Assembly: GCA_958296045.1 (NCBI GenBank)
Contig: CATQHT010000003.1
Span: forward strand, 2,666,814 to 2,730,813
Length of the DNA: 64,000 bases
Direction: 5' to 3'
Source of the DNA: Rhodothermales bacterium
GTDB lineage: Bacteria > Bacteroidota > Rhodothermia > Rhodothermales > Bin80
Of the stretch, positions 1 to 33,715 are shown piece by piece (within the stretch, counting starts at the first letter, position 1; every line of letters starts with the position of its first letter). The notes below the pieces were generated by a model that saw only the letters and a list, made by a program, of their open reading frames with translations, was not told where the DNA came from and searched no databases. The position numbers and the translations under genes were made by a program.

Positions 1-1395
1 ACATAGTAAGTGATGACGTCGCCGCCTTCGAGGCTGAATTCCTCCAGAAAGAGCAGGTGCTCACCCGCGACGCGCAGAGCACTCTCCTGTTCAACTAGTG
101 CAATACGCTGGGCTTCGCCGCCGCCCACATAGAAGACCAAGTCCAGCGCCGTCACGCCGAAGTCGTCCTCCGCGTCGGCGGCTACCAACACCTCCTCTAT
201 CGCGTTGGCGCGCAGGTCGCGCCCGGGATCCCGCAACGTGATGTGCGGCTTCTCGTCCGGTATCGGCACGATGGCGTGCTGCTGTGGAAACTGGTTCCGT
301 TTGCCCTCCGCATCCAACAGGCGAATCGTGAACAGATCCTCCTCTGCCAGCACAAAGTCGGTCGCAAACCGTCCATCACCCAACGAGCGCATCGTGCGCT
401 GCTGGCCGTGTTCCATCGCCATAACCGCGCTGGCGCTCTTGGCCGAGGCGGTGACCGTCAGGGTCACCGCAGAGCCCTCAAGCCCGACGATGTCACCAGC
501 ATCCTCCTCGATCCTTGGCGCCAATGGCAGGTGCTCTGGATAGACATAGGTCACGTCAATACGCTCGACCGCCGGAAACTCATACACCGAGATCGTGAAT
601 GCTTTTGTGCGCCGTCGCCCAGCTTCCACGAAGTACGTCACGGGTGCCTGAATGCTGGCAAACTCCGCCATAAATGCGGTCCCTTGCGAGCCCGGCTCCA
701 TTGCTCTGCGCGCCCATTCCGCCTCGCCTTCCCTGTAGGCTATCACTACGTCATCGCCGATGCTTCTTTGCAGCTCGGCCACGACAGCTACGGACTCTCC
801 CTTTTCGATTTCCACATCGCCGGGCGACACGCGCATAAAGGGGGTGGTAGCAGCGGCGGTTTCTGCCGCGACGAGGCGAATCCGGTCCACATTGGTGGCA
901 CCGAAAACCAGTAACGCAATGGCCACCGCCACCCCCAGACCTGTGATGACGCGTGCCTGCACTTTGCGTACCAGGGTCCCAGGCACGATAGCGCGCGCCA
1001 TGCGCGCCGCATCGGCGAACAGATCTTGTAGCAGGCGATCATCGGCGCCTTCGGCGCTCAAGGCTCGCGCTTCGGTAGCGCTGTTGATGCGGTCTTCTAG
1101 GTCTGGGCGTTGCTCTTCGATAAATAGCGCGACCTGGCGATCGGTGACAGGACGCCTTAGGGGACGTATCAGTGCCCACCAGGCGGTCCCCAGCGTGGCT
1201 GCCGCACCTAAGGTGGCGGCCACCCAGGGTGGCAGTGCCGCTGCGCGCAGCGCGGGCATCAGAAAAAACAACGCCACCAGGCAGGCGGCGGCTGCGACCA
1301 GGGTGAGCGTGGCGCCCTGCATTACGGTTCGGCGCCGCACTTGGCGTCGCACCTCACCGATCAGGCTATGAAGGTGGGTCTGCACGTTCTTCATG
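1..1395 (-). CDS. DUF4175-like large membrane protein of the BatA/DUF58 operon (5' part only, runs off the window)
   Basis: My own minus-strand translation from an ATG at about 1395 reads MKNVQTHLHSLIGEVRRQVRRRTVMQGATLTLVAAAACLVALFFLMPALRAAALPPWVAATLG... and stays open to position 1. It is absent from the ORF track because it has no stop in the window. It has two N-terminal TM helices and starts a few nt downstream of the vWA gene. Confidence 0.6.
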
Positions 1396-1403
1396 GCGGA
1401 ATG

Positions 1404-3404
1404 CTACGCTTGGGCGGCCTTGCGGTTACGATGAGATAGCACGGTTTCTAGGGCAAACAGCCCCAGGACGAGGATAACGGCCAAGCGCCAAAGCTTTTGG
1501 TCTGACTCGGTGTCCCCAATGGATAAAACCTCTTCTTCTGGAGTTGTCGCGCCACTGGAGCGGCTGACCACGGCGGCATAGGCTTCTTCTGCGGTGCGAG
1601 CCTTAAGCGCGGACTCCGCAGGATCCGTGTTGACCGAAAAGCGGTACTGTTCCTGCTCCGCTGCAGCGACGTAATGGCCTGGCGTTTCGGGGGCCGCAAA
1701 GACGCCCGTGCCCTCTTCATTCATCACGACTTTGTGGATCTGGCCCTCCGGTGTGCTCACGTTCCATTCTGCGTGGGGCATGCCGGTGAGTGTTACGGAT
1801 TCTGCGACCACAAACTGGCGGGGCGGCTCACGCAGCGCGGTGCCATAGGTGGCCATCTGATACAGGAACGGGAGGTACAGCTCCTGCAGCGCAAGGTCTG
1901 TCCAGCTCGTGCCGAAGCTTGAAGTATAGACGAGTATAGTGCCCTGGCCAATCCGCCGTTCCACAAGAAAGGGGTCGCCATTGTCGTAGCGCGCCACCAC
2001 GATGGCGCTGTCGGTGGGGGCGAGGCGCACATACCCGCGAAACGTGGGCCTAATGAGCGCGCTGGAAGACGCCAACGGCGCAAATATCGGATGCTGCGCT
2101 TCCACCTGGCCGATATGGGCGCTACCGCCTGGCGCCTGGGAGCGCACCACCTCTGTGACCTGGCCCACGCCCAGCCTTTCAAGTCCGTAACCGGGGGTCT
2201 GAACGGCATCGCCGAAACCGACAATCACGGTGCCGCCCCGCGTGGCAAACGTGCTCAGCAGCGCGGATTCTGTTGAGCTCAGGCGCGCTGTATTGGTCAC
2301 AAACACCACATCGCTCCTGAGCAGTGCCGAGGCGCTCAGTCGTGTTGCCGCGCTAAAGTCGAAGCGGGACCCTTGGCCCAGGTCAAACGCGCGCTGCAAA
2401 AAGAAGGCGTCCCGGTCTGCAGCCACTGCCAGCACCGCAGGGCGCGCGGCAACCCGGAAGGTAATGTAGTAGCGGTTGTCCGCTATCAGGTCATCGTCTG
2501 CTAGCGCCAGGTGTCCTTGGTATATGCCAGCGCGCGGCGCCACATACTGAAACGAGACCGTCCGAAGCCCGGGCTCGCCGGAAGACCTACGGTCCAGCTC
2601 TTCCTCTCCGATCCAGAGGCTCACCTCTTCGTCAGCGCTCAAAGCCAGATAGCGGGCGCCGATCTGTGTCACGGTGCCGCTGCCGCGCTGGCGCGAACTC
2701 AGGCTGACCGCAGCAAAATGCCGGTTGTCGCGTGCCTCTGTGCCCACCAGGACGGGTTCGAAGGTGACCCCTTCAGGCAGTGTGTATTCCTCTATGGAGG
2801 CCCGAAAGCCGCTCTGCTGCAGGTCAGAAATCAACACTACTCGCTGTGCGCTGTGGCGGGCCTCTTTCAGGATGTTCTCCGCGACTTGCAGAGCCGCCAG
2901 TATGTCCGTCGTACGGTAGGAGGGCTGCGCGGCAGCCGCCAGCACGCCAAGCTCGCGCGTATCGCGCGTGAGCGGCGAGAGCTGCGTGGCGTGGTCGCTG
3001 AACGACACCAGGGCCAGCTCATCTCGGCCGGAAGCCTGCGCGATGATGCGCTCTACGGCGTCTTGCGCCTCCTCAAAGGTGCGCTGGGCCTGCATGCTCA
3101 GTGACTGGTCCAGAAGGATCACCACGGATTCATCGGTGCGCTCGCTCACAAACGGCAGGGGAGCGCGCATCAGGTATGGGCGCGCGAAGGCGGTGGCGAG
3201 AAGGATAATCATCGCCATTCGCAGAATTAGCAGAAGCACATCGCGGATCTTGCGTCGGCGAAGGCGCTCCATAGGCGTGGCCGACAGGAACATCAGGGAG
3301 CTGAAGGGCATTTCGCGCGCCTTCATCCGGCGCACCAAGTGCAGAAGGATCGGCACCAGTGCCACGCCCGCGGCAGCCAGAAAGAGGGGTGTCAGAAAAG
3401 ACAA
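1404..3404 (-). CDS. BatA-type N-terminal anchor + von Willebrand factor A domain protein
   Basis: 666-aa ORF. The N-terminus MSFLTPLFLAAAGVALVPILLHLVRR matches the aerotolerance-regulator (BatA) N-terminal motif. VVILLDQSLSM is a MIDAS-like DxSxS. There is a C-terminal TM helix. The gene is packed 3 nt from the DUF58 gene. Confidence 0.8.
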   Translation of the reverse strand: MSFLTPLFLAAAGVALVPILLHLVRRMKAREMPFSSLMFLSATPMERLRRRKIRDVLLLILRMAMIILLATAFARPYLMRAPLPFVSERTDESVVILLDQSLSMQAQRTFEEAQDAVERIIAQASGRDELALVSFSDHATQLSPLTRDTRELGVLAAAAQPSYRTTDILAALQVAENILKEARHSAQRVVLISDLQQSGFRASIEEYTLPEGVTFEPVLVGTEARDNRHFAAVSLSSRQRGSGTVTQIGARYLALSADEEVSLWIGEEELDRRSSGEPGLRTVSFQYVAPRAGIYQGHLALADDDLIADNRYYITFRVAARPAVLAVAADRDAFFLQRAFDLGQGSRFDFSAATRLSASALLRSDVVFVTNTARLSSTESALLSTFATRGGTVIVGFGDAVQTPGYGLERLGVGQVTEVVRSQAPGGSAHIGQVEAQHPIFAPLASSSALIRPTFRGYVRLAPTDSAIVVARYDNGDPFLVERRIGQGTILVYTSSFGTSWTDLALQELYLPFLYQMATYGTALREPPRQFVVAESVTLTGMPHAEWNVSTPEGQIHKVVMNEEGTGVFAAPETPGHYVAAAEQEQYRFSVNTDPAESALKARTAEEAYAAVVSRSSGATTPEEEVLSIGDTESDQKLWRLAVILVLGLFALETVLSHRNRKAAQA

Positions 3405-3406
3405 CG

Positions 3407-4336
3407 TTAGTTGCGTCGGCTGCTGCGAGCGCAGAGGTACTCGAACAGAGCCACATCGAGCGGGCGGTCCGTAGTGATGAGCGTGTAGTCGATGCCCAGA
3501 AGGCCGCAGGCCCGCTGGATCGCCTGCTGATGCCGCTGGAAATTCTTCTGGTACACGGCGCGCGCGCTGCGTCCTTCCACCAGGAGCTTGGTGCCGGTTT
3601 CCAGGTCTTCGACGTGCATCACATCTTCGAAGTCGAAGTGTACCTCTTGGGGATCGAGAACGTGAATGATGAGCACCTCGTGTCCACAGAACCGGAAATG
3701 GCGCAGCGCATCGATCAGCGCAGCGCTGTCGGAGAGCAGGTCGCTCACGACAACGATGAAGCTGCGTCGCTCCTGTTGCTCCGCTATTGTATGCAGCGGC
3801 TTGTCAAACGAGGTGCCAGCCCCGGCCTCCACCTTGTCGAGCATGGTGAGCAGCGTGAGGAGATGTCCTTTGCTGCTGCGGGCCTCCAGGCGTTCCTGGA
3901 TGTCTTCATCAAATAGCGTCAGACCGGCAGCGTCCCGCTGTCTGATGGCCAGGTAAGCCAATGCAGCCACTAGGTACCGGGCATAGTCGAGCTTGGTGAT
4001 TGCGCCAGACTGGTAGCTCATCGAGCGGCTGCCATCGAGCAGAAGGTGTACACGCGTATTGGTCTCCCCTTCGAACTCTTTGACCAGTGTCCGGTCGGTC
4101 CGCGCATATACCTTCCAGTCGACGCGCCTGAGGTCGTCGCCGGGCATGTAGGGCCGGTACTGCATAAAGTCCACGCTGAACCCTTTATACGGGCTCCGGT
4201 GCAGCCCGGCGATAAAGCCTTCGACCACGGCGCGCGCCAACAGCTCCAGTCCCGATAGGCGCGCCAGGACATGTGGAAGGATGAACCGCGTCGCGGCTTC
4301 GGCCATAAACGGTTGCGCTGGGGCTCTGTGGCCCAA
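3407..4336 (-). CDS. DUF58 domain-containing protein
   Basis: HRSPYKGFSVDFMQYRPYMPGDDLRRVDWKVYARTDRTLVKEFEGE is the DUF58 signature. It sits in the usual operon position upstream of a BatA/vWA gene. Confidence 0.85.
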   Translation of the reverse strand: MGHRAPAQPFMAEAATRFILPHVLARLSGLELLARAVVEGFIAGLHRSPYKGFSVDFMQYRPYMPGDDLRRVDWKVYARTDRTLVKEFEGETNTRVHLLLDGSRSMSYQSGAITKLDYARYLVAALAYLAIRQRDAAGLTLFDEDIQERLEARSSKGHLLTLLTMLDKVEAGAGTSFDKPLHTIAEQQERRSFIVVVSDLLSDSAALIDALRHFRFCGHEVLIIHVLDPQEVHFDFEDVMHVEDLETGTKLLVEGRSARAVYQKNFQRHQQAIQRACGLLGIDYTLITTDRPLDVALFEYLCARSSRRN

Positions 4337-4456
4337 GGAAACGACAAGCGCGTCGGGTTTGTGCCCACGTCACGCAGCGTGACCAAAAGGGCAGCGGCCC
4401 AGGCGCAGAATGAGCGGGAATTCGCGGTGCCTTGCAAGGCCGCGTTGAGGCGACTC

Positions 4457-5494
4457 CTACGGCGATGGAGACATTTTCCAGAACGCGATACCGCCTGCCT
4501 GCCTGCCAACCTCACCGGTCGCAACGAGCTCCAGCGTCGAGAGGTCGATGACATCGACGGCTCCGGCTTCGCTTCCTACGCCTTCGACGCTCACGAACGC
4601 ATACCGTCCGTTGGGCGCAACCACTACACCGTGGGGTACCCTGCGGGATGTGCTGATTCTGGCCACTTCGCGGCCGGTCGCTGCCGCGTATACGCCCACC
4701 GCCGCGGCACTCTTGAGCGTTGCGACAATAAGGTGCCCATCAGGGGTAAGCGCGAGGTTGTAGGGGGCCCCGGCCGCGGCGATGCGGCGCGTGACGGACC
4801 AGGACTCAAGGTCAATTTCCACGATGGCATCCTGGCCGTTGTTGGCTACAAGGGCGCGATGCTCTGTAGGGTGGTGCTCCACCCAGGTGGGTCGTTGGCC
4901 GACTTTGAGCGTGCGCGTGACGGTCAAGCCCAATGCATCGATCTCGTAGAGCATGCCCTGCATCATAGACACGGAGTAGTGGCGCGTGCCGTCGGGCGAG
5001 AGCCGCGAACCGTGTGGCATCGCACCGGTCGTAACGCGTCCCACCTCTTGCATCCGGGCAGGATCCACCACGGAGATGGTGCTGGGGGTATGGGTGCCGT
5101 GTAGGTTGAAGTTGGCCACGTACAACAGTCCGGTGGCGCCAGACACCTGCATGGTGGCTGGAAACAGGTCCAGCGTCACCGCACCCACCCTTTCGTTTGT
5201 GTCGGTCCGGTACTTGATCACGGAGCCGAAGGGCGCACCGTGCGCGACAGAGACGTACCAGTACTTTCCATCCGGGCTGATGGTGAGTCCGTGCGGGCCT
5301 TCGATTTCAGTCGGGATCCGCCCCACCGGAATGGTCTCGATGGTAGTCACACGCTTTTGGCTATAGCGAACCAGCGAAACCGTATCATCAGACTCATTGG
5401 CCACGTACAGGAGGTATTCCTGCGCCTGGGCACCGGCACAGGAGAGTGTCAGCACCAGTGCCAGCGCGGCGGAGCGGGTGGCCGGGACCTTCAT
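4457..5494 (-). CDS. secreted YncE-like beta-propeller repeat protein
   Basis: Signal peptide MKVPATRSAALALVLTLSCAGAQA. Repeated blade motifs: YVANESDDTVSLV, LYVANFNLHG, ALVANNGQDAIVEIDL, AFVSVEGVGSEAGAVDVIDL. Confidence 0.7.
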   Translation of the reverse strand: MKVPATRSAALALVLTLSCAGAQAQEYLLYVANESDDTVSLVRYSQKRVTTIETIPVGRIPTEIEGPHGLTISPDGKYWYVSVAHGAPFGSVIKYRTDTNERVGAVTLDLFPATMQVSGATGLLYVANFNLHGTHTPSTISVVDPARMQEVGRVTTGAMPHGSRLSPDGTRHYSVSMMQGMLYEIDALGLTVTRTLKVGQRPTWVEHHPTEHRALVANNGQDAIVEIDLESWSVTRRIAAAGAPYNLALTPDGHLIVATLKSAAAVGVYAAATGREVARISTSRRVPHGVVVAPNGRYAFVSVEGVGSEAGAVDVIDLSTLELVATGEVGRQAGGIAFWKMSPSP

Positions 5495-5514: not shown

Positions 5515-6168
5515 ATGCTCATGTTTTACTGTACGTCCCGGGCGCGGTTGCCCGCGCTTGTCAGGCGCGGAGCCACCGGTGTTTTGCTATGGCGCACGCT
5601 TGCTGACGCCAGGCGGATCTGTGATGCGGACGAGGTGATCCTTGTCGTGGAGCATAAGGATACCGGACTGCGCAATCTGAGGTGGGCGCCGTGCGCCTAT
5701 CTGGAGCGCGTGCTGCCGGAGGAATTCCAGAATGCGGCGCCGTATCTGCCTCCCCGGGAGGTGCTAGCGGCTGGCGGTGTGGTGCTGCGCGCTGGTGTGG
5801 TGCCCTGGGAGATTCTTCAGATTCGCCGGCACGGCCAATGGGATTTGCCCAAAGGCAAGTGCGACGGCGGCGAGTCGTTGCGTGCTTGCGCCTTAAGGGA
5901 GGTGCGTGAAGAGACCGGGGCGAATGATTTGGCGCTGGGCCGCTGCCTCGGAGCCACCGTGCATGGGTATCCGCAGGGCAAAAGCTATCGGGTAAAGCGC
6001 ACCTACTGGTACGAGATGCATAGCGCCTGCGAGGTGTTTTCGCCCCAGGCGGAGGAAGGCATCACGGCTGTGGAGTGGGTCCGGTGGGATCCGGCCAAGA
6101 CCCGGCTGGCGTACCAGACGCTGCGGCATTTGTCAGGGACGCTTGCTGAGCGTCTCAGCGCTCGCTGA
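5515..6168 (+). CDS. NUDIX hydrolase
   Basis: Nudix box GKCDGGESLRACALREVREETG. The ORF track start at 5446 overlaps the convergent propeller gene, so I prefer the internal Met at 5515. The start remains uncertain. Confidence 0.75.
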   Translation: MLMFYCTSRARLPALVRRGATGVLLWRTLADARRICDADEVILVVEHKDTGLRNLRWAPCAYLERVLPEEFQNAAPYLPPREVLAAGGVVLRAGVVPWEILQIRRHGQWDLPKGKCDGGESLRACALREVREETGANDLALGRCLGATVHGYPQGKSYRVKRTYWYEMHSACEVFSPQAEEGITAVEWVRWDPAKTRLAYQTLRHLSGTLAERLSAR

Positions 6169-21930: not shown

Positions 21931-22521
21931 GTCATCGGCGCGTCGCGCGTCGCGGGGGCGGACCGTGGGCTACCGGTTGAGGCCCATGCGGTCGGCAATA
22001 GGGAGAGGTAGCTCCCTATTGGACGAAAACTCCGTGACAGCACGAGGATGACCTTCGTGCTGACGTTGGTTCGAATATGCTGTAGTGCTTGACTCATGAT
22101 GTTGAGGCGTTGGGATTGGATTATCTGACCCTGTGAATTTGTATCTGATCGGTCGGATCACGGAAACGTATAACCCCCGGTGCCATTGTTAACGGCAACT
22201 TCCGCATGCTGATGAACGGCGTGGGATGGAGCAGCGCGCCTTCTTTGCAGACTCGGACAATGGCGCCACTCCCAATAGGCTTTGGCGCTCCAGCTCATAT
22301 GGTGCGGCTTATCACTCGGGCCATAAGTCCGATCCGCGTTAAGCCCTTTGGGACGGGATGATCCTTAGCTACGAGTATCCGGCCCGGGGTGCCACCTTTC
22401 GTATCGGGAAGGCCAGAGCTAGGTGCAATGTAGACCAGCACCAGCGAACGCTCAGCCGTTCGGGTCTCCGTCAGTGGCGGCCATGCGCGCACCAAGGATT
22501 CACCTTACATATGACGCAACT

Positions 22522-23243
22522 ATGGTGAGAATCGAAGCCAGCACATCCACGCTTATCGCCGTGTTCATGATCGCGGCTGCATGCTCTTCTGCTGCATTCG
22601 CGTACGGCCAAGATGCGGCCCAATGGGACGTGACCGCGCCGCTTGGCCCGGTAAAGACTGTGGAATTCTCGACCAGCGAAGGCACATGGATGAACCTCGA
22701 TGTCAGCCCGGAAGGGACTGAAATTGTCTTTGACCTCCTCGGAGACCTGTACGTGCTCCCCATCGAAGGTGGCCAAGCGCGGCTGCTATTGGGAGGTCCC
22801 GCCTTCGACATCCAGCCCCGCTACAGTCCCGACGGCAAGCACATCGCCTTCACCAGCGACCGTGCCGGCGGCGATAACCTTTGGATCGTCAGCCGGGACG
22901 GTACCGACACCACGCAGGTGACCAAAGAGGCTTTTCGCCTGGTCAACGGGCCCGCTTGGACACCGGATGGCAAGTACCTCCTGGGCCGCAAGCACTTCAC
23001 CAGTACCCGCTCTTTGGGGGCTGGCGAGGTATGGATGTATCACATCTCTGGGGGCGCCGGGCTGCAGCTGACCAAGAAGAAGAATTCGCAGCAAGACCAG
23101 GGCAATGAGATTGCGCTCAGTCCCGATGGTCGCTACGTATACTTCAGCGAAGACATCAGTGGCGGTAGCACCTTTCAGTACAACAAGGATCCGCACGGCC
23201 GCATCTATGCCATTCAGCGGTTGGATCGAGTTACAGGCAAGGT
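22522..23243 (+). pseudogene. TolB-like propeller/amidohydrolase gene, segment 1 of 3 (cut by an IS)
   Basis: The signal peptide MVRIEASTSTLIAVFMIAAACSSAAFA is followed by PD40/TolB-like repeats (YSPDGKHIAFTSDRAGGDNLWIV, WTPDGKYLLG). The reading frame runs into the IS inverted repeat at 23244. Confidence 0.8.
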
Positions 23244-23281
23244 CTGCCCTTTACCCATATCGCGACCTAGTCTGACGACTT

Positions 23282-23864
23282 CGATGGCGCCAAAGGGCCC
23301 CCCGCCGCTATCAAGGAGGTCTTCGGCGGCTTCGTGCAGGTGCAGCGCTGCTGTTGGCACAAGCGGGAAAACGTCGTGGCCCACATGAGCAAAGAAGATA
23401 AGCTCGTATATCGGGCGCGCCTGCAGAAAGCCTATCACATTCCAGACTACAGAGACGCGAAGGCGGAAGTCCTATCGATCAAGGACGACCTGGAAGCCTC
23501 CAACCAACTCAAGGCCATGAAGAGTCTGGAGGAAGGCATGGAGGACACGCTCACGATCCAAAGGCTCGCAATAGCCAAAGAGCTCGGCCAAAGCCTGCGC
23601 ACCACCAACTGTATGGAGAATCTCAATAGTACCCTCGGCAGATTGACGCGCAATGTTTGCAGTTGGAACAACTCGGCACAGGTCCACTGCTGGATGGCGC
23701 TGGCTCTCATGTATGCAGAACCCAAACTGAAAACCATCCCCAATCACCAACACCTGCTCAAGCTCCGAAAGGCGCTTATGAAGGTCAGGGCCCGACTGCC
23801 AAACCCCAAAATCCCCTTCTCCCCCCAGCGGGTGCCTTGGACCTATCTTCAGGCCCAGCAATAG
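23282..23864 (+). pseudogene. IS256 (Mutator) family transposase, C-terminal half only
   Basis: DGAKGPPAAIKEVFGGFVQVQRCCWHKRENVVAHMSKEDK...LRTTNCMENLNSTLGRLTR matches the IS256 pattern DGxxGLxxAI...QRCxxHKxRN...TTNxxExLN. The N-terminal half is absent. Confidence 0.75.
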
Positions 23865-24055
23865 TGCTCAGTTCGCGGCGATGAGTGATCATGCGGAGCA
23901 CCCTTGCTGACTTTTTGCACTTCGCCGCTCGTAAGGTTTCGACATGCCGTCACTCAATGTGCGTTCAGACTTGCATTAGAGGTATCCACTGCTTACGATG
24001 CCAGTGCTGCTCCGTGGTGGCGTGCCTCTGGCTCGTGCGTCGATGCGCGACAGGG

Positions 24056-26368
24056 TCAAGAAAGTATGCTGCTCCCATGGCCATAGTCGCAACCAAGCCC
24101 TTCTCGATACGCTGCCGGCAGTATTTCGTACCCAAAGCAAATGGTGGATAGTCGCTCTAATCCGCGCCACATGATCTGAAAGCCGGGCGGTCCATCGCGA
24201 GTTCGATTCTGATAGCCGCCCATTACTGCTACTAGCAGAAGCGCCGCTTCCAGGGTGCGGGGTACCGGCAGCTTCACGTTCTTAGCATAAAAGGAGAGAG
24301 CAATCAACTGCATCGGGGAGAATATCAGCTCGGCATCTAATCCAGGGACGGCACGCCCCAGTAAGGTGAGCATCATGACATAGCAGGCGATCACGCAGTA
24401 CACCGCCAACCCACGTTCCAGGCGCGCTGCCGAACGCATCGCCATGCGTTCCACCTTACAGCCACTCTTGAGCACACGGAAAAAGTCTTCAACACGCCAT
24501 CGCCGGGTATAATAAGTCAGGATCTGCACCGCTTCTTCTGCGCTGTGCACCGCCATACTGGTCAGCAGATACCATTCCACCGCCTTCTCTCCCTTCGGGG
24601 GCGCGATCTCCCGGACATGCACGCCGTACATCGCTACGGATCCCCCTTGCCGCTGCGTGGCGGGCAGCTGTACGCAATGGTAGCGTACCTCGGCTCGGGC
24701 AATACGGTGACTACGTCCGTGGCGCACCTTCTTCCTGGAAGACTTCGGACGCGCCGTGACCCGTTGGATCTCTATCCGCACCTTCGCTGCGGCAGGACCG
24801 CTGCGAAGCGTCGCAAACAGCTTTTTATTCTTCGCCAGTCTCCGGTCATGACGGGCGCGGACCAGGAGTTCCACGCGATCCTGTGCCCGCTGGGCGGCAA
24901 ATAGCGCAAAGTTATCCGCCTCCCGGTCCATCACGCAGATGAGGCGACACTGCTTGGGAATCTCCTCTGCTGCTTCGCAGATGTCCAGAAATCCGTCTAA
25001 CCACTGCTGCGATCGAGGTTTGAGCGGTCCCGTATCTGGATCCCGATAACTACAACGTAATATCCCCAGGGGCAGGCCATCGGTAGTAGTAACCAGCGTG
25101 GCATGAAGGGGCATCCCACGGGATTTTGCTTTCGTCTGGTTGGTACCTATGACCTGCAAGTCTTCACAGGCGGGTCGCGTGCTGAAATTCAGCTTGGTGG
25201 TATCCTGTATGCAGAGTACCGCCTTCTGACTCCGTATCCGCTCAATCGTACGTTTGCGATGCGGCGCCAGCATGTTTTCGGGTGTTACGTCGGTCTGCTT
25301 GCTGCTCAGAAGCCGGTAATGGGCCTTCACCGCCGCCCTATCATGGCTTATATGGGAGCATATAGGCTTTCCTATCACATCGGCCAACAACGATGCGCTC
25401 TTCACCAGCCGCGTGGACAGCCGCCTGTCTCCCAGCGGAGCATCTCCGAACTCTGCCTCAACCCAGTCGTCCATGCCTTCGTGCGGTTGCCTGACCGGAC
25501 GCAGCGCCACCTCGGGTACGCCCAAGTACGAGCGCCACCGGCGGTCCACTTCGTACATGAACAAGGCCTTCGGCGCTTCTTCTTTGGAATGTGCGTGGCG
25601 CTTGCCCCCAGCAGTATAGCCGATGGACAGAAAATTGGCCGCCTTCAAGCACGTACCTTTCCATGGAGGTTCCACATACGTTTCTATCAACCAGGGGTGG
25701 TATCCATAAAGCGCATAACAGTCGTCAGATAACTGCTTCAACACCCTGCCGAGTACGTGACTGGCCAGGTATTTGCAAGTGCCGCGTATCAGAAAGCGGC
25801 TCAAACAGAAGATGCGGTGGAGGTGCGCTTGGCGTTGGGCATCGCTCCATGCCATGAAGTGTTCCCTTGCGGCCAAGCGCAAGGCCGGGGCGGAAAAACC
25901 TACCGCGCCCAGATATCCATGCGCGCTCACTACCAGGTACCGCAGCTGGGCACCAACAAGGGTGGTCGTACCACGAGGATGCTCATGGTGCAGCAGGGTA
26001 TTCCACACCGCACGCTGTGCTGCGGTCCGAACTCTTACTACTGCAAGACCTTCCACCTCACCCAAAGTCGCGGGCATCGCCACCGGTGGAGCAACCGCCT
26101 CGTCCAACAGGCGGGGCGACGCCTGCGCAGCATGATTGTTGAGCGGTGCTGGCAGTGTGATCTCACCCCGTGCCTCCAGCTTCAAGAGGGCTTTCGCGCA
26201 GGTAGCTACCTGTGCCCTGCCTTTGGCATCTACAAATCCAAAGTCCTCACATACACGGCGCGCAATCGCGGTGCGATTGGGAAGGCTCTCGTCAGAAAGC
26301 CTCTTCTTCAAGCGAATGCGCCCCCGGGGAGCACTGAGAGTCCGCAAAACCTGATTCTGCTCGAACAT
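24056..26368 (-). CDS. fusion transposase: N-terminal DUF4338 (DruA-like) domain + Tn5/IS4-type DDE transposase
   Basis: 770-aa intact ORF. The N-terminal part GAQLRYLVVSAHGYLGAVGFSAPALRLAAREHFMAWSDAQR...CLSRFLIR...GYHPWLIETYVEPPWKGTCLKAANFLSIGYTAGGKR fits my memory of the DUF4338 pattern. The C-terminal part has Tn5-like DDE regions (LCIQDTTKLNF, ICVMDREADNF, YYTRRWRVEDFFRVLKSGCKVE). Confidence 0.8.
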   Translation of the reverse strand: MFEQNQVLRTLSAPRGRIRLKKRLSDESLPNRTAIARRVCEDFGFVDAKGRAQVATCAKALLKLEARGEITLPAPLNNHAAQASPRLLDEAVAPPVAMPATLGEVEGLAVVRVRTAAQRAVWNTLLHHEHPRGTTTLVGAQLRYLVVSAHGYLGAVGFSAPALRLAAREHFMAWSDAQRQAHLHRIFCLSRFLIRGTCKYLASHVLGRVLKQLSDDCYALYGYHPWLIETYVEPPWKGTCLKAANFLSIGYTAGGKRHAHSKEEAPKALFMYEVDRRWRSYLGVPEVALRPVRQPHEGMDDWVEAEFGDAPLGDRRLSTRLVKSASLLADVIGKPICSHISHDRAAVKAHYRLLSSKQTDVTPENMLAPHRKRTIERIRSQKAVLCIQDTTKLNFSTRPACEDLQVIGTNQTKAKSRGMPLHATLVTTTDGLPLGILRCSYRDPDTGPLKPRSQQWLDGFLDICEAAEEIPKQCRLICVMDREADNFALFAAQRAQDRVELLVRARHDRRLAKNKKLFATLRSGPAAAKVRIEIQRVTARPKSSRKKVRHGRSHRIARAEVRYHCVQLPATQRQGGSVAMYGVHVREIAPPKGEKAVEWYLLTSMAVHSAEEAVQILTYYTRRWRVEDFFRVLKSGCKVERMAMRSAARLERGLAVYCVIACYVMMLTLLGRAVPGLDAELIFSPMQLIALSFYAKNVKLPVPRTLEAALLLVAVMGGYQNRTRDGPPGFQIMWRGLERLSTICFGYEILPAAYREGLGCDYGHGSSILS

Positions 26369-26520
26369 GCTGCTATAGTAAGCAACACGACTTACAATGT
26401 CAAGTGGTCCCTATGGGCCGGGGGCAGACCTGAGCACTATTGCTGGGCCTGAAGAGAGGTCCAATGCACCCGCAGAGTCGTCAGACTAGGTCGCGATATG
26501 GGTAAAGGGCAGGGCAAGGT

Positions 26521-27091
26521 TGTGACATTGGTTAGCGGGGCTGGCGGGGCTGCGCGCCCTGAGCCCTCGCCCGACGGTCGCCACCTCGCCTTTGTGAGAC
26601 GGGTGCGATCCAAGAGTGTACTGTACCTGTACGACATGGCCAGTGGTGCCCAGCGGCCGCTATGGGACGGGTTAAGCCACGATCAGCAGGAGGCCTGGGC
26701 TATCTTTGGCGTTTATCCTGGCTTTGACTGGACGCCGGATGGAAAGCACATCATCTTGTGGGCCGAGGGCAAAATTTGGCGCGTGGCAATCACTCACGGC
26801 CAAGTGGCCGAAGTGCCCTTTACGGCGCCGGTCAAGCAAGAGGTGCACGAAACGTTGCGCTTCCGGCAGGAGGTCTTCGGCACCTCTTTCGACGTTCGCA
26901 TGATTCGCGATGCAGTCACCTCGCCCGATGGTGGCACGCTGGTGTTTGCGGCGCTGGGCACCCTGTGGAAAAAGACGCTGCCCAGCGGAGAGCCTCAGCG
27001 CCTGACAGACGACGATGTGCACGAGCACGAACCCGCATTTAGCCCCGATGGTAAAGTTGTGGTGTACACCATGTGGAGTGACTCGACGTTG
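26521..27091 (+). pseudogene. TolB-like propeller/amidohydrolase gene, segment 2 of 3
   Basis: The frame continues exactly across the IS once one target-duplication copy is removed (..RVTGKV|VTLVSGAGGAARPEPSPDGRHLAF..). It ends at codon ..WSDSTL immediately before the intron GTGCG. Confidence 0.8.
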
Positions 27092-27797
27092 GTGCGCCAG
27101 GCTAACTGGTGCCAGTACAGGGAGTGAAAGTCTCCCGATGTGAAGGACTAACCATCCACGCATCTCCTCGAGCCGTGCGTCGGTACCCGCGAGGGTGCAG
27201 GCGAAGCGTCGGTAGAGGTGCGGGTGGGCAGGGCTAATGAGCACCGAAAATGTCATCGTCCGGGACGCCGAGGGTTTCTTCGTGGTCGAAGGCAACACCT
27301 TCTTTGCCGTTAATGGTGAGGCGGAGGAGGGTCCCGCGGTGTCCAAGAACCCAGGCACGCACGTACGTACTGCATCGGGACCTGGGAGGTCTCTCCACTA
27401 CCCATCCCTTCGGGGAGGGTCGCCAAAGCGTAGGCTAAATGCCGATCGGAGGATGTACGGTGGAGAGAAGTCAGATGCGACCATAGTAGCTATGAAGCCA
27501 GCGAACAACGCGTGGATGACCACGGGGCGGAGCCGGTGGAGCCAAGGGTCGCACCCAAGGGGAAAGCGGGAAGCTGGATTCATGCCGGACTCTGGGCTGG
27601 ATTACGTGGATCTGTCCAAGAGCTGTGGACTCAGTGCCACAGTCGGGGCGCAGGTGTACCGCTTACGGCTGGAGGTGGGGTTTCCCCACTTCCTAACGTC
27701 ATGCGCGGGAGCGCGACCTGCGGGAAGAGCCGTGTGCGTTAACGCGCACGCACGGATCTGTGCGGGGCCCCAGGGGAAACCCTGGGGCTACCGCGAT
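27092..27797 (+). mobile_element. group II intron, ORF-less (intron-encoded protein deleted)
   Basis: 5' GUGCGCC. Domain V is at 27727-27758 (GAGCCGUGUGCGUUAACGCGCACGCACGGAUC, with the AGC triad and AC bulge). Domain VI is GCCCCAGGG-GAAA-CCCUGGGGC with an unpaired A at 27790, 7 nt before the 3' end ..AU. Removal leaves the exons in frame. Confidence 0.8.
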
Positions 27798-29729
27798 GGC
27801 GCCATCTGCCGAGTTCCGCTGGTAGGCGGTCGCTGTGAGCAGCTGACCACGCGTCCTGGGCACTACTTCACTCCTCGGTTCAGCCCAGACGGGTCCAAAA
27901 TCGTGTACCAGCGCGGCACCGGCAATGCGCTGCGCGGCACCCTACACGGGACAGATCCCGGCCTATACTGGATGGCATCTGATGGCAGCGCGCCGCACCT
28001 GATCACCGAATCTGGTGCCGATCCGCGCTTCGATGCCACAGGGGAGCGCATATACTTTATGGCGGGCGGTGGCCTTGAAAAGGAGTACCGCAGCATCAGC
28101 CTGCACGGCGCCGAGCCACGGGTGCACTTTACGCTGAAGTATCCGGCCGAGGTGGTGCCAAGCCCTGACGGCACGCTGGTGGCTTTCACGGAGCTATTCA
28201 ACGCGTACGTTGCGGCCTTTCCGGCAACAGGCGGCCCGGTGGCGCTGGCGAAGGATACCAAGGCGATACCGGTCCACCAGGTCAGCCGAGATGCTGGGAC
28301 GAGTATTCACTGGACTGAGCGCGGATTGCACTGGGTGCTGGGTCCACGATACTTCACCCATGATGTGCGCGGCGGATTCCCGGTTAGCGGTGCCGACAGC
28401 ACCGGGGTGCCGATAGGGCTGGTGGCCGCGTCGGATAGGGTGACTGGAGCCGTGGCGTTTACGGGTGCACAGGTCGTCACTATGCGAGGTGACGAGGTGC
28501 TACAGGATGCGACCGTAGTGGTAGAGGGCTCTCGTATCATTGCGATAGGCGCCGACGTCTCTATCCCCGAAGGCGCCTTGGTGATCGATGCTGCGGGCCA
28601 GACCATTCTCCCGGGCATCATTGATGCACATGCGCATGCCAGCCACTTCGTCAGCGGTCCATTGCCCCAGGAGAACTGGGCTTATTTGGCCAACTTGGCC
28701 TATGGCGTCACTACGGCGCATGACCCGAGTGCCAGCACCGCTACGGTCTTCACGCAGAGCGAGATGGTACGGGCCGGGTTGTTGACGGGGCCGCGCATCT
28801 TTTCGACGGGGACGATCCTTTACGGGGCAGACGGTGACTTCAAGGCGGTGGTCAACAGCTTAGACGATGCTCGGAGCCACCTTCGTCGGATGCAGGCGGT
28901 AGGTGCCTTCTCCGTCAAGAGTTACAACCAGCCGCGCCGCAACCAGCGGCAGCAGATCGTGCAGGCGGCCAGGGAGTTGAAGATGAACGTGGTGCCGGAA
29001 GGGGGATCTACCTTTTTCCACAACATCACCATGATCCTGGACGGCCATACGGGAATCGAGCACAACCTGCCGGTGGCGCCACTGTACCAGGATGTGCTGC
29101 GGCTGTGGGCTGCCACCGAGGTCGGGTACACGCCGACCTTGGTGGTCAGCTACGGTGGATTGTCTGGAGAGTTCTTCTGGTACCAGCGGGACAACGTGTG
29201 GGAAGATGAGCGCCTTCTGACCTTCGTTCCGCGCGGCATCGTGGATGCTCGCAGCCGGCGGCGCCTGATGGCGGATGCGGACGACTATTTCTATCTGGAA
29301 GTTGCGCGGCAGACGAAGAAGCTGGTCGATCAGGGAAACATCGTGCAGGTCGGGGCGCACGGCCAGATGCAGGGCATCGCGGCGCACTGGGAATTATGGA
29401 TGTTGCACCAGGGCGGCATGACCTCGCACGAAGCGCTGCGCAGCGCGACGCTGCATGGTGCCCAATACCTGGGGTTGGATCATGAGCTGGGCTCACTGGA
29501 GCCGGGAAAGCTCGCCGACCTGATGGTTATTGACGGGGACCCATTGACAGACCTTTACCAGTCTGTCAATGTGGCGCAGGTCATGGTCAACGGGCGTCTG
29601 TACGATGCGCGCACCATGGATCAGATCGGCAACCATCCCGCGCCGCGAGGCTCGCTGTACTGGGAACGGCATGAGGTGAGCGAAGAGCTGCTCGATCACG
29701 GCCCGGCGTGTGTGTGCGGCCGCCACTAG
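27798..29729 (+). pseudogene. TolB-like propeller/amidohydrolase gene, segment 3 of 3 (amidohydrolase domain)
   Basis: GAICRVPLVGG...FSPDGSKIVYQRG, then the metal-dependent hydrolase motifs PGIIDAHAHASH, GSTFFHNITMILDGHTGIEH, GAHGQMQG and KLADLMVIDGDPL. The 830-aa ORF in the track begins inside the intron. Confidence 0.85.
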
Positions 29730-29793: not shown

Positions 29794-30089
29794 GCCTGCG
29801 CTTTGTCTGCTCTATTGGCGACAGTGCTGTTCCGGTGCGACGCGTCGGAGTCTGAGGCGCAGCGCTTGCAGGCTGTTATGGCTCGGCGGTGTGCATCGTG
29901 GGTGGGGATGATCCCGGTGGTGCCGCAGACCAGAGCCTCAGGCGGGTGAACCCGGAGCCGGCGGAGCCAGCGGGCGGCGAGTACAGCGGTCGCGGCGGCA
30001 ATGGCCGTACAGGTTCAGCGCTGCACGCGTGATTTCAAAATGGTATACCTCGGCGACCGGGTCCTGGATGCGCGGATCACAGAATTCAA
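29794..30089. repeat. diverged duplicate of the fur 3' end and its downstream flank (copy A; contains a 3' fur pseudogene fragment at 29938-30089, minus strand)
   Basis: Aligns with 33077-33381. It encodes EFCDPRIQDPVAEVYHFEITRAALNLYGHCRRDRCTRRPLAPPAPGSPA, matching the C-terminus of the intact Fur-family gene. Confidence 0.85.
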
Positions 30090-30520
30090 CCGGCCTTCGC
30101 CGCAGCCGTTGACCGTGCCTTCTTTTCCCGTTAACGAGATTGAACAGGAGCTTAACTTGCTGATCGGTAACCATGCTGAATGCATGTTGACAGGTGAACA
30201 ATCCTGCCCGTAGATACGCATCTCACCGATTCCTTCCCCCGCAATTCTAGTTGTCGCCAACCGCAATTCTAATTGTCGCTGAACATACTTGCCGTGGCTG
30301 TGGAATTTACGGACGTACTCATCCTTCTGGCTAGCGTCCGACCGGTAGACGCTGGACTGACCGAGGACCAAAATTATGAAATGGATGTGCGTGAGGGCTG
30401 TATTGATTGCCACGGTCACACAGCGCCGCTACCCTGTTACCGCGCCTTCTGTAGGGATAGGGGAACGGAGTGCTCAAGGTGGGCAGGTGCCTGTTTCACT
30501 ATGGACCCGAATGACCCAGA
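30090..30520 (+). pseudogene. TnpB (IS200/IS605 OrfB) 3' fragment, multiply frameshifted
   Basis: Across frames it reads ..VDTHLTDSFPRNSSCRQ, then PRNSNCR and TCRGCG (zinc-finger CxxC). A 22-bp tandem duplication CCGCAATTCTAGTTGTCGCCAA/CCGCAATTCTAATTGTCGCTGA is present. The 24-mer CGCAATTCTAATTGTCGCTGAACA recurs inverted at about 37873-37897 inside the other tnpB remnant. Confidence 0.55.
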
Positions 30521-30550
30521 CCGTTATTGCGATGGCTGGTAGTGGTTACC

Positions 30551-31603
30551 ATGAAGATTAGCCTTATGAGCGCCTCACCACCGAGCCGTCGTGCTTTTCT
30601 GATCTGCGCGCTCTTGTTGGGCGTGGCGGTGACCTCTGGCGTGCGTGCGCAAGAATTGGCGCTGCCCGATTTGAAGCACTTCAAGAGGGTCCGTACGGTC
30701 ACCTTTGATGGGCCGGAGACGCTGCTGATTGCGCAGATCGAATACCTTGATATAGATGCGGCTGGTCGATTCCTTGTCACCGACATACTGGGTGAGCAGG
30801 TCTTGCTGTTTGACTCGACCGGCTCACTGCAGGCCTCATTGGATTCATCGGTTTGCGAACCAGGATTCACCTTTAGCCCTGAGAGTGCCCATTTTAGAGG
30901 TGATGAGTCCATCTTTGTCCTGAATAGTGGGGACCACTGGGGGTACCGATTCAACAAGGACGGCACATGCCTAGGCAAAGTCGATCGCGAGTTCGATAAT
31001 CCAAGGTTCCTCGCCATTGATCCAGCGGGCACGCTCTATGGCGCTTATGTCCGGCCGACCTTGGAAATGCGACGCATGAGCGCCACCGGGGAGACCCTTA
31101 GCAGCTTCTCAATCCCTAAAGGGGAGTTCCCTAATGCCAACAATCGTCTCGACGAGGGCGGTCTCGTTGCTGACGGAACGCATCTCTTCTACGCCGCGGC
31201 AACTGAGCCAGCGATAATGAAGTTCGCTTTGGATGGTACGCTTGTAGGAAGAATTTCGAAGCGCAGCTCATGGTTTCGCTCCCCCCGTCGGGATCTGCCG
31301 CGTGATCTTTCCCCAAAGCTGTTCGAAGCCCTTAGAGAATGGGAAAGCACTACCACAACGTGGAGCCTTTTTGAGCTCACAGACGAAACACTGCTGATTC
31401 AGTATTTCAGTGGTGAGCGCGGAATCGGGTATCAGGTGTTTTCCAAGGACGGCACCCTGGTTGCCGAAGAGCTAGACTATGGTCGCCGACCTATTGTACA
31501 TGGGGAAAACGGGCTGGTCTACTTCGTGATGCAACCCGGTCTAGACAGTCAGGGTGATTTGCCCAATCCTTATGTTGAAATCTACCGGTTTGTAGCGCCA
31601 TGA
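30551..31603 (+). CDS. secreted 6-bladed beta-propeller protein (BF3164/NHL-like family)
   Basis: Signal peptide MKISLMSASPPSRRAFLICALLLGVAVTSGVRA. Repeated blades include IDAAGRFLVTDILGEQVLLFDSTGSL, IFVLNSGDHWGYRFNKDGTCL, AIDPAGTLYGAY and HLFYAAATEPAIMKFALDGTLV. The family assignment is from memory only. Confidence 0.55.
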   Translation: MKISLMSASPPSRRAFLICALLLGVAVTSGVRAQELALPDLKHFKRVRTVTFDGPETLLIAQIEYLDIDAAGRFLVTDILGEQVLLFDSTGSLQASLDSSVCEPGFTFSPESAHFRGDESIFVLNSGDHWGYRFNKDGTCLGKVDREFDNPRFLAIDPAGTLYGAYVRPTLEMRRMSATGETLSSFSIPKGEFPNANNRLDEGGLVADGTHLFYAAATEPAIMKFALDGTLVGRISKRSSWFRSPRRDLPRDLSPKLFEALREWESTTTTWSLFELTDETLLIQYFSGERGIGYQVFSKDGTLVAEELDYGRRPIVHGENGLVYFVMQPGLDSQGDLPNPYVEIYRFVAP

Positions 31604-31722
31604 CGCACAATATCGTGCCATCTTCCATTAAGGCCGAGAGCCTCAAGGTCTTGGCCTTGGCCATACTCCTGGCATCGGGCGTCGCCTATCTGTTGCTTAT
31701 TGACAGCGTAGAACCGGCGTGA
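31600..31722 (+). CDS. possible 40-aa single-TM peptide, start overlaps the upstream stop (ATGA)
   Basis: My own translation: MTHNIVPSSIKAESLKVLALAILLASGVAYLLLIDSVEPA. It is below the ORF-track size cutoff. The ATGA overlap with the propeller gene suggests translational coupling. Confidence 0.3.
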   Translation: MTHNIVPSSIKAESLKVLALAILLASGVAYLLLIDSVEPA

Positions 31723-31740
31723 TCGAATGGTGCGCTTGGC

Positions 31741-32220
31741 ATGTACGCAGACGCCAGCACAGTGGACTCACTAAGGCGGGCGCTTGAGGGACGTACAGTT
31801 CCAGCTTTGCACGCCCATAGTGCCGTCACAGATCAGCGCAGCAACATTGATATGGCTGCCGTTGGGCTAATCATTCCGTTAGCAGTAAATACCTGCGCTC
31901 AGAAGCAGATCGAAGCACTAAAGAGGCTTCAGGCACTACAGGACGCTATCAGTGAGGAGGTCCCGGTGCACGTTGTTCTGGTGACTGATATTGACGCAGA
32001 AACCACTAGAATGCGAACCCTCCTCCTGCGCAAGGCAATACGACCAACCTTTGAATTGTGGCATACCAACGAGAGCCATCCCCTATATCGGGCTGTTCTG
32101 TCAGAGCAGTTAGCGCCAGTCCTAGTCGTCAGTGACAACATGGTTAGCAGCGTGTTCCACACCGTAGAACACAAGCGTATTGTGAGTACCGTTTCGTCTT
32201 TGCTGGCGACTTCGCCTTAG
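31741..32220 (+). CDS. hypothetical protein, possibly a thioredoxin-fold (TlpA-like) protein with degenerate CxxC (VNTC)
   Basis: 159-aa ORF. AAVGLIIPLAVNTCAQKQIEALKRL...PVLVVSDNMVSSVFH resembles the redoxin layout but keeps only one Cys. The assignment is weak. Confidence 0.35.
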   Translation: MYADASTVDSLRRALEGRTVPALHAHSAVTDQRSNIDMAAVGLIIPLAVNTCAQKQIEALKRLQALQDAISEEVPVHVVLVTDIDAETTRMRTLLLRKAIRPTFELWHTNESHPLYRAVLSEQLAPVLVVSDNMVSSVFHTVEHKRIVSTVSSLLATSP

Positions 32221-32414
32221 CTTAAGTTCATAGACCTTTGGGCTGTACGAGGGGCCACAACTCCTCTGGATTGTGCAGGGTAGCTGCAACTTCCTGACTT
32301 CCTCGGAATACGCACCCCCTTTCTTGGCAGCGAAACGATGCAGGCCTCCCTCTGTGCATCAGGCTTTTTCCCTCCCCTTGTGGCTGCGTCCTCGCTATCG
32401 AACTCAGAGACCGC

Positions 32415-33060
32415 CTACTGGGGCTGACAGGCTAGGAACCGCCCGCGTAGGAAGCTTCCGCTCGCTACTGGCGACCGCCCCTTGTTGGCCACGATGTTCC
32501 GGTACATGAGCCGTTTCCCGATCATCTGGGCCACGACGTGCTGAATCTGACCCATCGAGTCCAGTTCCTGGACGTTGCGCTGCCCCGCGAAGGCATTGAC
32601 GTAGGCCTGGAGGTGCTTCGGGCTGAGCCGGTGGTGGACCTCCTTGTGTGTCCGCTTCAGCATCGGCCAGAACGACTCGACCCCGTTCGTATGGATCGGC
32701 GCGCCTTCGAGATACCGGACGTATTCGGCGGCCGAGTGCTTCACTGTCTCGTGCTCCTCCGGTCCTCTTGTAGGCTGTCGCGTCGTCGGTGAAGAGCAGC
32801 GCGCCGGGAGCCGCGTGTTCGTCCACGAAGCCCTGTAGCGTCTCCCAGTTCAGGCGGTCAAGCAGCCGCCGCGGGTCTCCCCGTACTTGGCCCCGAGACC
32901 ACCGCGGCCTTCCCTATCGGACCCCGGCCCGCCCCTGCCGCTTCGAGTGGCTCATGTTCGCTCGCTTGCCGCCAATGTAGCACTCGTCCACCTCGACCGG
33001 CCCCTCGAAGCAGGGCCGCACCACGGCGAACACCTCCCGGATCCGATGTAGCATGGACCA
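32415..33060 (-). pseudogene. IS1595-family (ISXO2-like) transposase, N-terminally truncated and frameshifted
   Basis: Across frames it reads VEVDECYIGGKRANMSHSKR, ALLFTDDATAYKR, and EYVRYLEGAPIHTNGVESFWPMLKRTHKEVHHRLSPKHLQAYVNAFAGQRN...GKRLMYRNIV. Confidence 0.75.
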
Positions 33061-33076
33061 GGCGGACCGCTGTCCA

Positions 33077-33381
33077 GCCTGCGCTTGGTCTGCGCTACTG
33101 GCGACAGCGTTGCACAGGTGCGCCGCGTCGGAGTATGAGCCGTAAAGCCTGCGGGCTGCTATGGCCCGGCGATATGCACCGTGGGTGGGGATGATCCCGG
33201 CGGTGCCGCGAACCAGCGCCTCAGGCGGGTGAACCCGGAGCCGGCGAAGCCAGCGGGCGGCGAGTGCACCGGTCGCGGCGGCAATGGCCGTACAGGTTTA
33301 GCGCCGCACGCGTGATTTCAAAATGGTATACCTCGGCGACCAAGTCCTGGATGCGCTGGATGCGCGGATCACAGAATTCAA
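33077..33381. repeat. fur 3' end and downstream flank (copy B, part of the intact gene)
   Basis: Partner of 29794-30089. In the roughly 150-nt coding part I count 7 mismatches plus a 9-bp indel. The non-coding part is visibly more diverged. Confidence 0.85.
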
Positions 33382-33715
33382 GCACCTCCTGGCAGTCAAG
33401 ACAGATCAGGTGGTCATGCTGCCGGTAGCGTAACGACGGCTCGTACTTAGCACCGTGCTCACCGAATTGATGCCTCACCACCAAGTCGCACGCCAAAAGG
33501 AGGTTCAGCGTGTTGTAAACGGTCGCGCGACTGATGGTGCGCTCCTGTTGCTGCAGCCGATCATACAGCGCATCCGCGTCCGTGTGACCGTCCATCGCGT
33601 AGAGCGCATCAAGCACCTGAAACCGTTCGGGCGTCTGACGCAGACCTTGCTGCCGCAGGTAGCTCTGAAAACGCTCTTTGGCTTCCTCGCGATGGCTGGC
33701 TGGGTGCGACCGCAC
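33221..33715 (-). CDS. fur: Fur-family transcriptional regulator
   Basis: LRQTPERFQVLDALYAMDGHTDADALYDRLQQQERTISRATVYNTLNLL (winged helix), then HDHLICLDCQEVLEF and GHCRRDRC metal sites. The 283-aa ORF in the track is over-extended; I propose a GTG start at 33715 (164 aa). Metal specificity is unknown. Confidence 0.8.
   Translation of the reverse strand: MRSHPASHREEAKERFQSYLRQQGLRQTPERFQVLDALYAMDGHTDADALYDRLQQQERTISRATVYNTLNLLLACDLVVRHQFGEHGAKYEPSLRYRQHDHLICLDCQEVLEFCDPRIQRIQDLVAEVYHFEITRAALNLYGHCRRDRCTRRPLASPAPGSPA

Follow-up and report, generated by a model that had tools for sequence, protein, structure and literature searches.

Bacterial group II introns that lack an open reading frame (ORF) are described as rare and usually share their genomes with related introns that encode an intron-encoded protein (IEP); most bacterial introns lie outside housekeeping genes, and insertion inside conserved genes has been noted for cyanobacteria and for the CL/ML lineages (PMC4424553). 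The ORF-less introns of Thermosynechococcus elongatus go back to one ancestral ORF deletion and are mobilised in trans, and copies at poorly matched sites have been read as the result of retrotransposition, with poor splicing (Mohr et al. 2010, PMC2882425). Here we describe a locus in a 64,000-nt stretch of the genome of a Rhodothermales bacterium (GenBank assembly GCA_958296045.1, contig CATQHT010000003.1, forward-strand positions 2,666,814 to 2,730,813; the whole stretch is referred to below as the window), where one conserved gene for a propeller-amidohydrolase fusion is interrupted both by an IS50/Tn5-like insertion sequence (IS) of the IS4 family and by an ORF-less group II intron.

With a probability of roughly 80%, we read this locus as a single conserved gene hit by two unrelated mobile elements, that is, inactivation by the IS and independent invasion by a non-autonomous intron, both recent-looking and the intron ectopic. 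The 3269-bp Tn5-like IS entered codon 241 by cut-and-paste transposition, duplicating 8 bp. The 706-nt intron, whose lineage would already have been without its reverse-transcriptase gene, would have been mobilised in trans by the protein of another intron, and most likely entered between codons 431 and 432 by rare ectopic retrotransposition. Both elements belong to known kinds, and the outcome is ordinary mobile-element damage that leaves current understanding unchallenged. Its value lies mainly in annotation: a single inactivated gene accounts for three ORF fragments, one of which is already annotated as a protein of 288 aa, and the boundaries of the IS and of the intron are now defined to the base.

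The intron resembles the T. elongatus TeI3 family (PMC2882425) in having a single ancestral IEP deletion with shared breakpoints, a frameshifted N-terminal remnant and multiple dispersed copies; in both cases mobilisation and splicing need an IEP in trans, and some copies sit at poorly matched sites. It differs from that family in phylum (Rhodothermales) and in RNA subfamily (RF02005), and its full-length relatives encode IEPs of ~493 aa that end without a detectable endonuclease domain. Unlike in T. elongatus, a driver IEP was not found for this lineage in the 64-kb window or in the Rhodothermales loci among the matches listed, and the copy described here sits inside a conserved chromosomal coding gene. 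With the introns reported from conserved genes (PMC4424553) it shares sense orientation and an in-phase position within a conserved ORF, such that splicing would restore the protein. Those introns, however, are thought to splice efficiently, whereas the intron in the window has no IEP, is mismatched at its exon-binding site 1 (EBS1) and lies in a host gene that is dead from the IS anyway.

The interrupted gene and its orthologues

Three ORF pieces had been assigned, in an earlier note based on the letters of the window, to one TolB-like/amidohydrolase gene that could be reconstructed exactly in frame, and both claims hold. Removal of the IS with one copy of its 8-bp target duplication, and of the intron, joins pieces of 722, 571 and 1932 nt into 3225 nt, which encode 1074 codons plus a stop codon with no internal stops. 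The junction peptides are those given in the note, ..RVTGKV/VTLVSG.. at the IS and ..WSDSTL/GAICRV.. at the intron. Codon 241 is broken by the IS between its second and third bases, and the intron is a phase-0 insertion. Across the empty IS site the rebuilt gene reads GTTACAGGCAAGGTTGTGACA, and across the intron-less junction GACGTTGGGCGCCATC.

The rebuilt protein has 7945 homologues, the best of which are 1064-1100 aa long and cover 97-100% of the query at no more than 79% identity (best homologue: 2009 bits, 79% identity, 99% coverage); those named come from Rhodothermales, related Bacteroidota, Gemmatimonadota and KSB1. Alignment of the concatenated protein with orthologues, the check proposed at the outset, was carried out with 17 full-length homologues and revealed no gap at either junction and conserved motifs that continue across both. 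This gap-free match across the junctions is far beyond chance. Pfam analysis detected PD40 repeats and Amidohydro_1/3 in the rebuilt protein, to which the homologues add Tricorn_N and Tricorn_2nd. In the PDB, the N-terminal part has TolB propellers as its relatives and the C-terminal part has amidohydrolases of the prolidase or imidazolonepropionase type; a DAHAH metal motif is found at aa 707. The gene order ACP-FabF-gene-Fur, with Fur on the opposite strand, is common to the window and the three closest orthologous loci (L001-L003). Judged by sequence, the gene is the orthologue of the gene that follows fabF in other Rhodothermales, and its predicted product is a secreted fusion of ~1074 aa between a PD40/Tricorn-like beta-propeller and a metal-dependent amidohydrolase. 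It matches the PD40/TolB-propeller-amidohydrolase fusions annotated as 'amidohydrolase family protein' (COG1228-type C-terminal domain) in full-length colinear homology, both domain types, the DAHAH motif and the fabF-linked position, but differs from them in being interrupted twice, so its ORF is not intact.

The IS truncates the product to 288 aa (22522-23388), consisting of 240 native residues followed by 48 encoded by the IS, and exactly this truncated product is listed in the annotation of the source genome, on an NCBI/ENA contig of 2.88 Mb (P0291, whose 288 residues agree in full with the translation of the window sequence). Because the IS truncates the protein and also cuts the remainder of the gene off from its start and signal peptide, the allele is null through the IS alone, whatever the intron does. 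The remainder of the coding sequence is well preserved, as had been claimed: the rebuilt protein carries three private changes, all conservative (V97I, G495S and S604T), in columns that are invariant in the other 17 sequences, and most intact orthologues carry 1-5 by the same measure. An 830-aa ORF (27237-29729) starts in domain I of the intron, runs through the IEP remnant and continues in frame into gene piece 3; it would be reported as a protein by a gene caller.

Table 1. Coordinates of the interrupted gene, the two inserted elements and the neighbouring insert (positions in the window)
Feature	Position	Strand	Details
Gene piece 1	22522-23243	+	codons 1-240 and two bases of codon 241; encodes the signal peptide and the initial PD40 propeller blades
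Gene piece 2	26521-27091	+	final base of codon 241 to codon 431; last 6 nt (27086-27091, ACGTTG) are intron-binding site 1 (IBS1)
Gene piece 3	27798-29729	+	codons 432-1074 and stop; rest of propeller and amidohydrolase domain
Insertion sequence	23244-26512	transposase on -	3269 bp, IS4 family (Tn5/IS50-like)
Target-site duplication, left copy	23236-23243		8 bp, GGCAAGGT
Target-site duplication, right copy	26513-26520		8 bp, GGCAAGGT
Left terminal inverted repeat, outer 37 bp	23244-23280		starts CTGCCCTTTACCCATATCG; 37/37 complementary to 26476-26512
IS256/Mutator transposase fragment	23281-23827	+	547 bp, C-terminal part, lodged in left inverted repeat
Left inverted repeat, inner 47 bp	23828-23874		94% complementary to 26427-26473
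Transposase	24056-26368	-	770 aa; domains from the N-terminus: DruA-like, Tn5 DNA-binding, DDE, Tn5 dimerisation
Sigma-70-like promoter match	26375-26403	-	TTGACA-17-TACTAT, directly upstream of transposase start; consensus match alone
Right terminal inverted repeat	26427-26512		contiguous 86 bp (47 + 2 + 37)
Group II intron, ORF-less	27092-27797	+	706 nt; GUGCG at 27092, AU at 27796-27797
Intron domain I core	27127-27351	+	Rfam RF02005 (group-II-D1D4-6), 167.9 bits, full model 1-225
EBS1 hairpin	27267-27293	+	EBS1 hexamer CUUCGU at 27278-27283; located by covariation
IEP gene remnant	27453-27568	+	codons 2-21, then codons ~26-39 in another frame
Intron domain V	27727-27758	+	within RF00029 match (27725-27797)
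Intron domain VI	27760-27797	+	bulged A; within RF00029 match (27725-27797)
358-aa ORF	30527-31603		secreted-looking; in ~3-kb insert
159-aa ORF	31741-32220		in ~3-kb insert
IS1595-type transposase remnant	32415-32744	-	C-terminal part; in ~3-kb insert

The insertion sequence

The transposase scores 285.4 bits against the NCBIfam IS4 model NF033590 (cut-off 160) and matches the Pfam domains DDE_Tnp_1, Tnp_DNA_bind and Dimer_Tnp_Tn5. It contains the Y-(2)-R-(3)-E-(6)-K motif, the signature of the IS4-family catalytic region, as YYTRRWRVEDFFRVLK from aa 619 (Y620, R623, E627 and K634). The promoter match upstream of its start is the only sigma-70-like match in the region. These features, together with the CTG tips, the 8-bp duplication and the presence of just one transposase gene, preceded by a promoter-like site of its own, are those of IS50/Tn5-like elements. 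Three differences set the IS apart from them: the transposase reaches 770 aa owing to a DruA-like (PF14236) N-terminal domain of ~300 aa, the inverted repeats are long (~86 bp), and the left repeat holds 547 bp of an IS256-family transposase gene, which is likewise carried by a 98% identical twin in another sample.

The true length of the inverted repeat is disguised by this last feature, which the earlier note had missed. The repeat of ~86 bp is contiguous on the right, and on the left it is split after base 37 by the 547 bp, which correspond to positions 232-362 of 379 in the Pfam profile PF00872 and to positions 193-336 of 338 in NCBIfam NF033543. The twin, on a metagenome scaffold (L004; ENA ERZ23496176), is 98% identical and ungapped over 3182 bp, starts exactly at the IS tip and carries the IS256 fragment too; the unit that moved is the whole 3269-bp composite. 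Neither boundary of the fragment shows a target duplication, so it was not acquired by simple transposition. A more distant relative (L005, 83.6% identical) is without the fragment, has a repeat that is contiguous at the far end and is flanked by its own 8-bp duplication, GGCTAGCT (L005 positions 2934-2941 and 5582-5589). As it happens, the homologous site without the insertion, GCCTATCT, is present in the window at 31684-31691. The family, the ends and the 8-bp duplication of the IS thereby receive independent confirmation. We also considered that an IS256-type element might own the outer 37-bp repeats, with a Tn5-like IS nested inside it. This arrangement was rejected, as the long repeat of the relative is contiguous without the IS256 fragment and the tips start with CTG.

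The DruA-like domain gives a PF14236 match of 69.6 bits over aa 107-234. PF14236 is the former DUF4338 and has been termed GNAT-like (PMC10853773); PADLOC models did not call the window transposase DruA. The architecture is common to thousands of proteins: a search returned 4654 transposase homologues, the best at 97% identity and many of ~750-800 aa, and all of the best 120 of these 4654 (nearly all ~640-840 aa) carry PF14236 together with Tn5-type transposase domains. Tn5-like transposases with a DruA-like N-terminal domain are a very common class that is little discussed.

A second transposase, 89% identical, is encoded on the same 2.88-Mb contig. The IS family appears to be active and multi-copy; the signs of transposition are indirect, namely the intact ORF, the 98% copy in another sample and the diverged copy in the same genome. 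At the right IS tip, an outward-facing ATG (ATGGGTAAAGGGCAG) is in frame with gene piece 2 and opens a 209-aa ORF (26498-27127) that ends inside the intron; this is probably a coincidence.

The group II intron and its lineage

The ends of the intron fit the group II consensus (5' GUGYG, 3' AY), and it folds far more stably than shuffled sequences (z = -5.2). Its RF02005 score exceeds the 158-166 bits of related Rhodothermales copies. The RF00029 match over domains V and VI reaches 40.0 bits, which is exactly the gathering score; both domains align with those of two full-length relatives on proteobacterial plasmids (L006 and L007), and the bulged A in CUACCGC was read from the sequence. The relatives encode IEPs of 493 and 492 aa. 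Homology between them and the window intron is lost at about intron nt 478 and picks up again at about nt 625, where the IEP gene ends and domain V lies, and tblastn with the two IEPs found that only ~40 N-terminal codons, frameshifted, are left. The reverse-transcriptase gene is deleted, and the window intron is an ORF-less derivative rather than an autonomous retroelement.

This loss predates the arrival of the intron, a point absent from the earlier note. A scan of species-representative genomes with a conserved intron 19-mer revealed at least 114 loci. One Rhodothermales metagenome-assembled genome (MAG; OZ244148.1) contains at least four copies of 665-671 nt that are colinear with the entire window intron and share with it both the deletion junction and the frame of the remnant, thus indicating that the ORF-less form is a lineage and not the product of a local deletion, and that the intron arrived non-autonomous. 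Such a lineage must depend on a protein supplied in trans. No IEP or maturase gene was found elsewhere in the window by tblastn with the two plasmid-borne IEPs, and the Rhodothermales loci examined, among the matches listed, contained no full-length IEP or intron copy, which is not proof of absence. An exact scan of the species-representative genomes with the domain V sequence of the window intron gave no match, which shows that this collection lacks the source genome.

To locate EBS1, covariation was analysed over 46 introns, including that of the window. EBS1 maps to the last six bases of an 8-nt loop in the hairpin GCCGA-NNNN-NN-EBS1-NNNN-GAAGGC, where pairing with the exon is found in 96-100% of introns at positions -1 to -5 and in 85% at -6, far above shuffled controls. 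All six positions pair in 36 introns, five in eight and four in two, namely the window intron and L061. In the window, EBS1 is CUUCGU and the 5' exon ends in ACGUUG, which leaves U opposite U at -2 and -3; no other of the 46 introns is mismatched at both. Four or more pairs are also reached by 23% of shuffled exon/intron combinations. The EBS1 hairpin has a predicted stability of -0.6 kcal/mol, compared to -7 to -10.5 kcal/mol in relatives, and an alternative fold pairs EBS1 with the adjoining conserved CGAAGG. Because EBS1 is unmatched to the flanking exon, ectopic retrotransposition is the most likely route of entry. The window intron is probably an ectopic insertion at a non-cognate site and is predicted to splice poorly, if at all.

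A second conserved loop, CGUUAAUGGUGAG, was rejected as EBS1 since it is the other loop that covaries with the exon. For EBS2, a candidate in the internal loop after CGAAA covaries weakly with exon positions -8 to -11, and real and shuffled pairs could not be told apart by their pairing. A metagenome scan with the window EBS1 hairpin, for sister copies and a cognate target, gave no match. Membership of class C (IIC) was considered on account of the short domains I-III and was not adopted, given the 6-nt EBS1 and the lack of an obvious upstream terminator hairpin at the insertion sites checked (window, L006-L009, L053 and L077a).

At least two species of Rhodothermales carry the ORF-less lineage with its one shared deletion, and one of its copies lies in a conserved coding gene at a non-cognate site. 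It is conceivable, if quite improbable, that a non-autonomous intron lineage found throughout the Rhodothermales, driven by a trans-acting reverse transcriptase, enters conserved genes at poorly matched sites and yet splices well enough to be tolerated. If true, this would provide a bacterial example of the stage of a 'common splicing apparatus plus dispersed degenerate introns' that has been proposed on the way towards spliceosomal introns.

Several observations on individual copies can be added. Compared with four of the copies in OZ244148.1, domain IV of the window intron contains a 34-nt insertion (27616-27649) that holds an inverted repeat, CTGTGG...CCACAG. In the same MAG, group II introns are clustered in a stretch of ~4.5 kb (L077, ~265-4680) with three RF02005 matches, including a complete ORF-less copy, as well as matches to RF02001, RF02003, RF01998 and RF00029, which suggests introns inserted into introns. 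An ORF-less copy of this MAG (L009, 1716-2386) interrupts, in sense, an ORF of at least 678 aa that looks by eye like a transposase of the IS1634/IS4 type, where bacterial group II introns are more typically found. Among the matches listed, the intron closest to that of the window (L048; OZ253559.1, 66-534, - strand) is 81% identical over nt 3-473 and begins with GAGCG, not GUGCG; its EBS1, UUCUUC, differs from that of the window and pairs with its own exon, GAAGGA, at 6/6 positions.

Timing of the insertions and surroundings of the locus

The lack of any other decay in the coding sequence makes both insertions look recent. The proposal that the IS insertion is recent is well matched by its perfect target duplication, perfect 37-bp tips and intact transposase, as well as by the undecayed exons, all of which would fit a young event. 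If the intron cannot splice, it must be recent as well; if it can, it could be of any age. No feature of the locus dates either insertion, and either could have come first.

Some points weigh against this double-insertion reading. Apart from its EBS1, the ribozyme looks intact, with an RF02005 score at the top of the subfamily range and family-typical domains V and VI; splicing may be helped by a maturase acting in trans, and the 4/6 match was evidently sufficient for insertion. A maturase-encoding intron may well lie elsewhere in the ~2.9-Mb genome, of which the window samples 64 kb. The earlier note had proposed a search for an empty IS site; such a search of public metagenome contigs, with the sequence to the left of the site as a query able to match empty and occupied alleles alike, gave no match. 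With no empty-site allele found, recency is argued from absent decay and perfect repeats only.

The strongest alternative, which we nevertheless regard as unlikely, is that the intron is an older resident, efficiently spliced by a maturase encoded elsewhere, and that the gene functioned normally until the recent IS hit. It is favoured by the intact ribozyme core, the sense orientation in phase 0 and the undecayed exons, as well as by the usual co-occurrence of ORF-less bacterial introns with related IEP-encoding ones (PMC4424553). The absence of decay, however, is equally explained by two recent insertions. The 4/6 EBS1-IBS1 match places its adjacent U-U mismatches near the splice site, whereas 44 of the 45 relatives pair at five or six positions and nearly a quarter of shuffled pairs (23%) do as well as the window; the EBS1 hairpin is destabilised, the 64-kb window contains no IEP, and the relatives of the gene in the 17-homologue alignment have no intron at the equivalent site. 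The suggestion in the earlier note of an older intron that is tolerated as a resident is accordingly not borne out: the intron is undated, there is no maturase in the window, and both the 4/6 pairing and the hairpin at -0.6 kcal/mol speak against it.

Another explanation for the lack of decay, to which we attach a rather low probability, is that not all members of the population or all strains carry the IS (the same may hold for the intron), the gene remaining under selection in the species. Perfect tips and a perfect duplication are consistent with such a polymorphism, as is an active, multi-copy IS family with a 98% copy in another sample and an 89% identical transposase on the same contig. 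On the other side, public metagenome contigs yielded no empty-site sequence, and the protein collection contains no intact same-species allele and none above 79% identity; the sole record for the species carries the truncated product. That the three ORFs are separate genuine genes, or that a repeat was misplaced into the gene during assembly, is extremely improbable. Nothing favours it beyond the separate annotation of the pieces by gene callers (P0291). The orthologues are single proteins of 1064-1100 aa, gap-free over both junctions, and an 8-bp target duplication, like intron ends that fit the consensus exactly, marks a genuine insertion event and not mis-assembly.

Beyond the two interrupting elements, the locus is crowded with mobile-element traces. 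A non-coding spacer of 591 bp (21931-22521) separates the fabF stop from the gene start, in contrast to 4 nt in the three closest orthologous loci; it matches no Rfam family, is not repeated elsewhere in the window and does not fold unusually (z = -1.1). Downstream of the gene, a direct duplication of ~300 bp with 86.6% identity (29794-30089 and 33077-33381) takes in the spacer between the gene and fur together with the final ~44 codons of fur, and brackets an insert of ~3 kb (30090-33076); intact fur lies at 33242-33706. The insert contains the last three features listed in Table 1. In L005, the gene beside the IS encodes a 361-aa homologue of the 358-aa ORF and a VirB4/TrbE conjugation gene lies nearby. 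Because this homologous neighbourhood holds a VirB4/TrbE gene, the ~3-kb insert may derive from a conjugative element.

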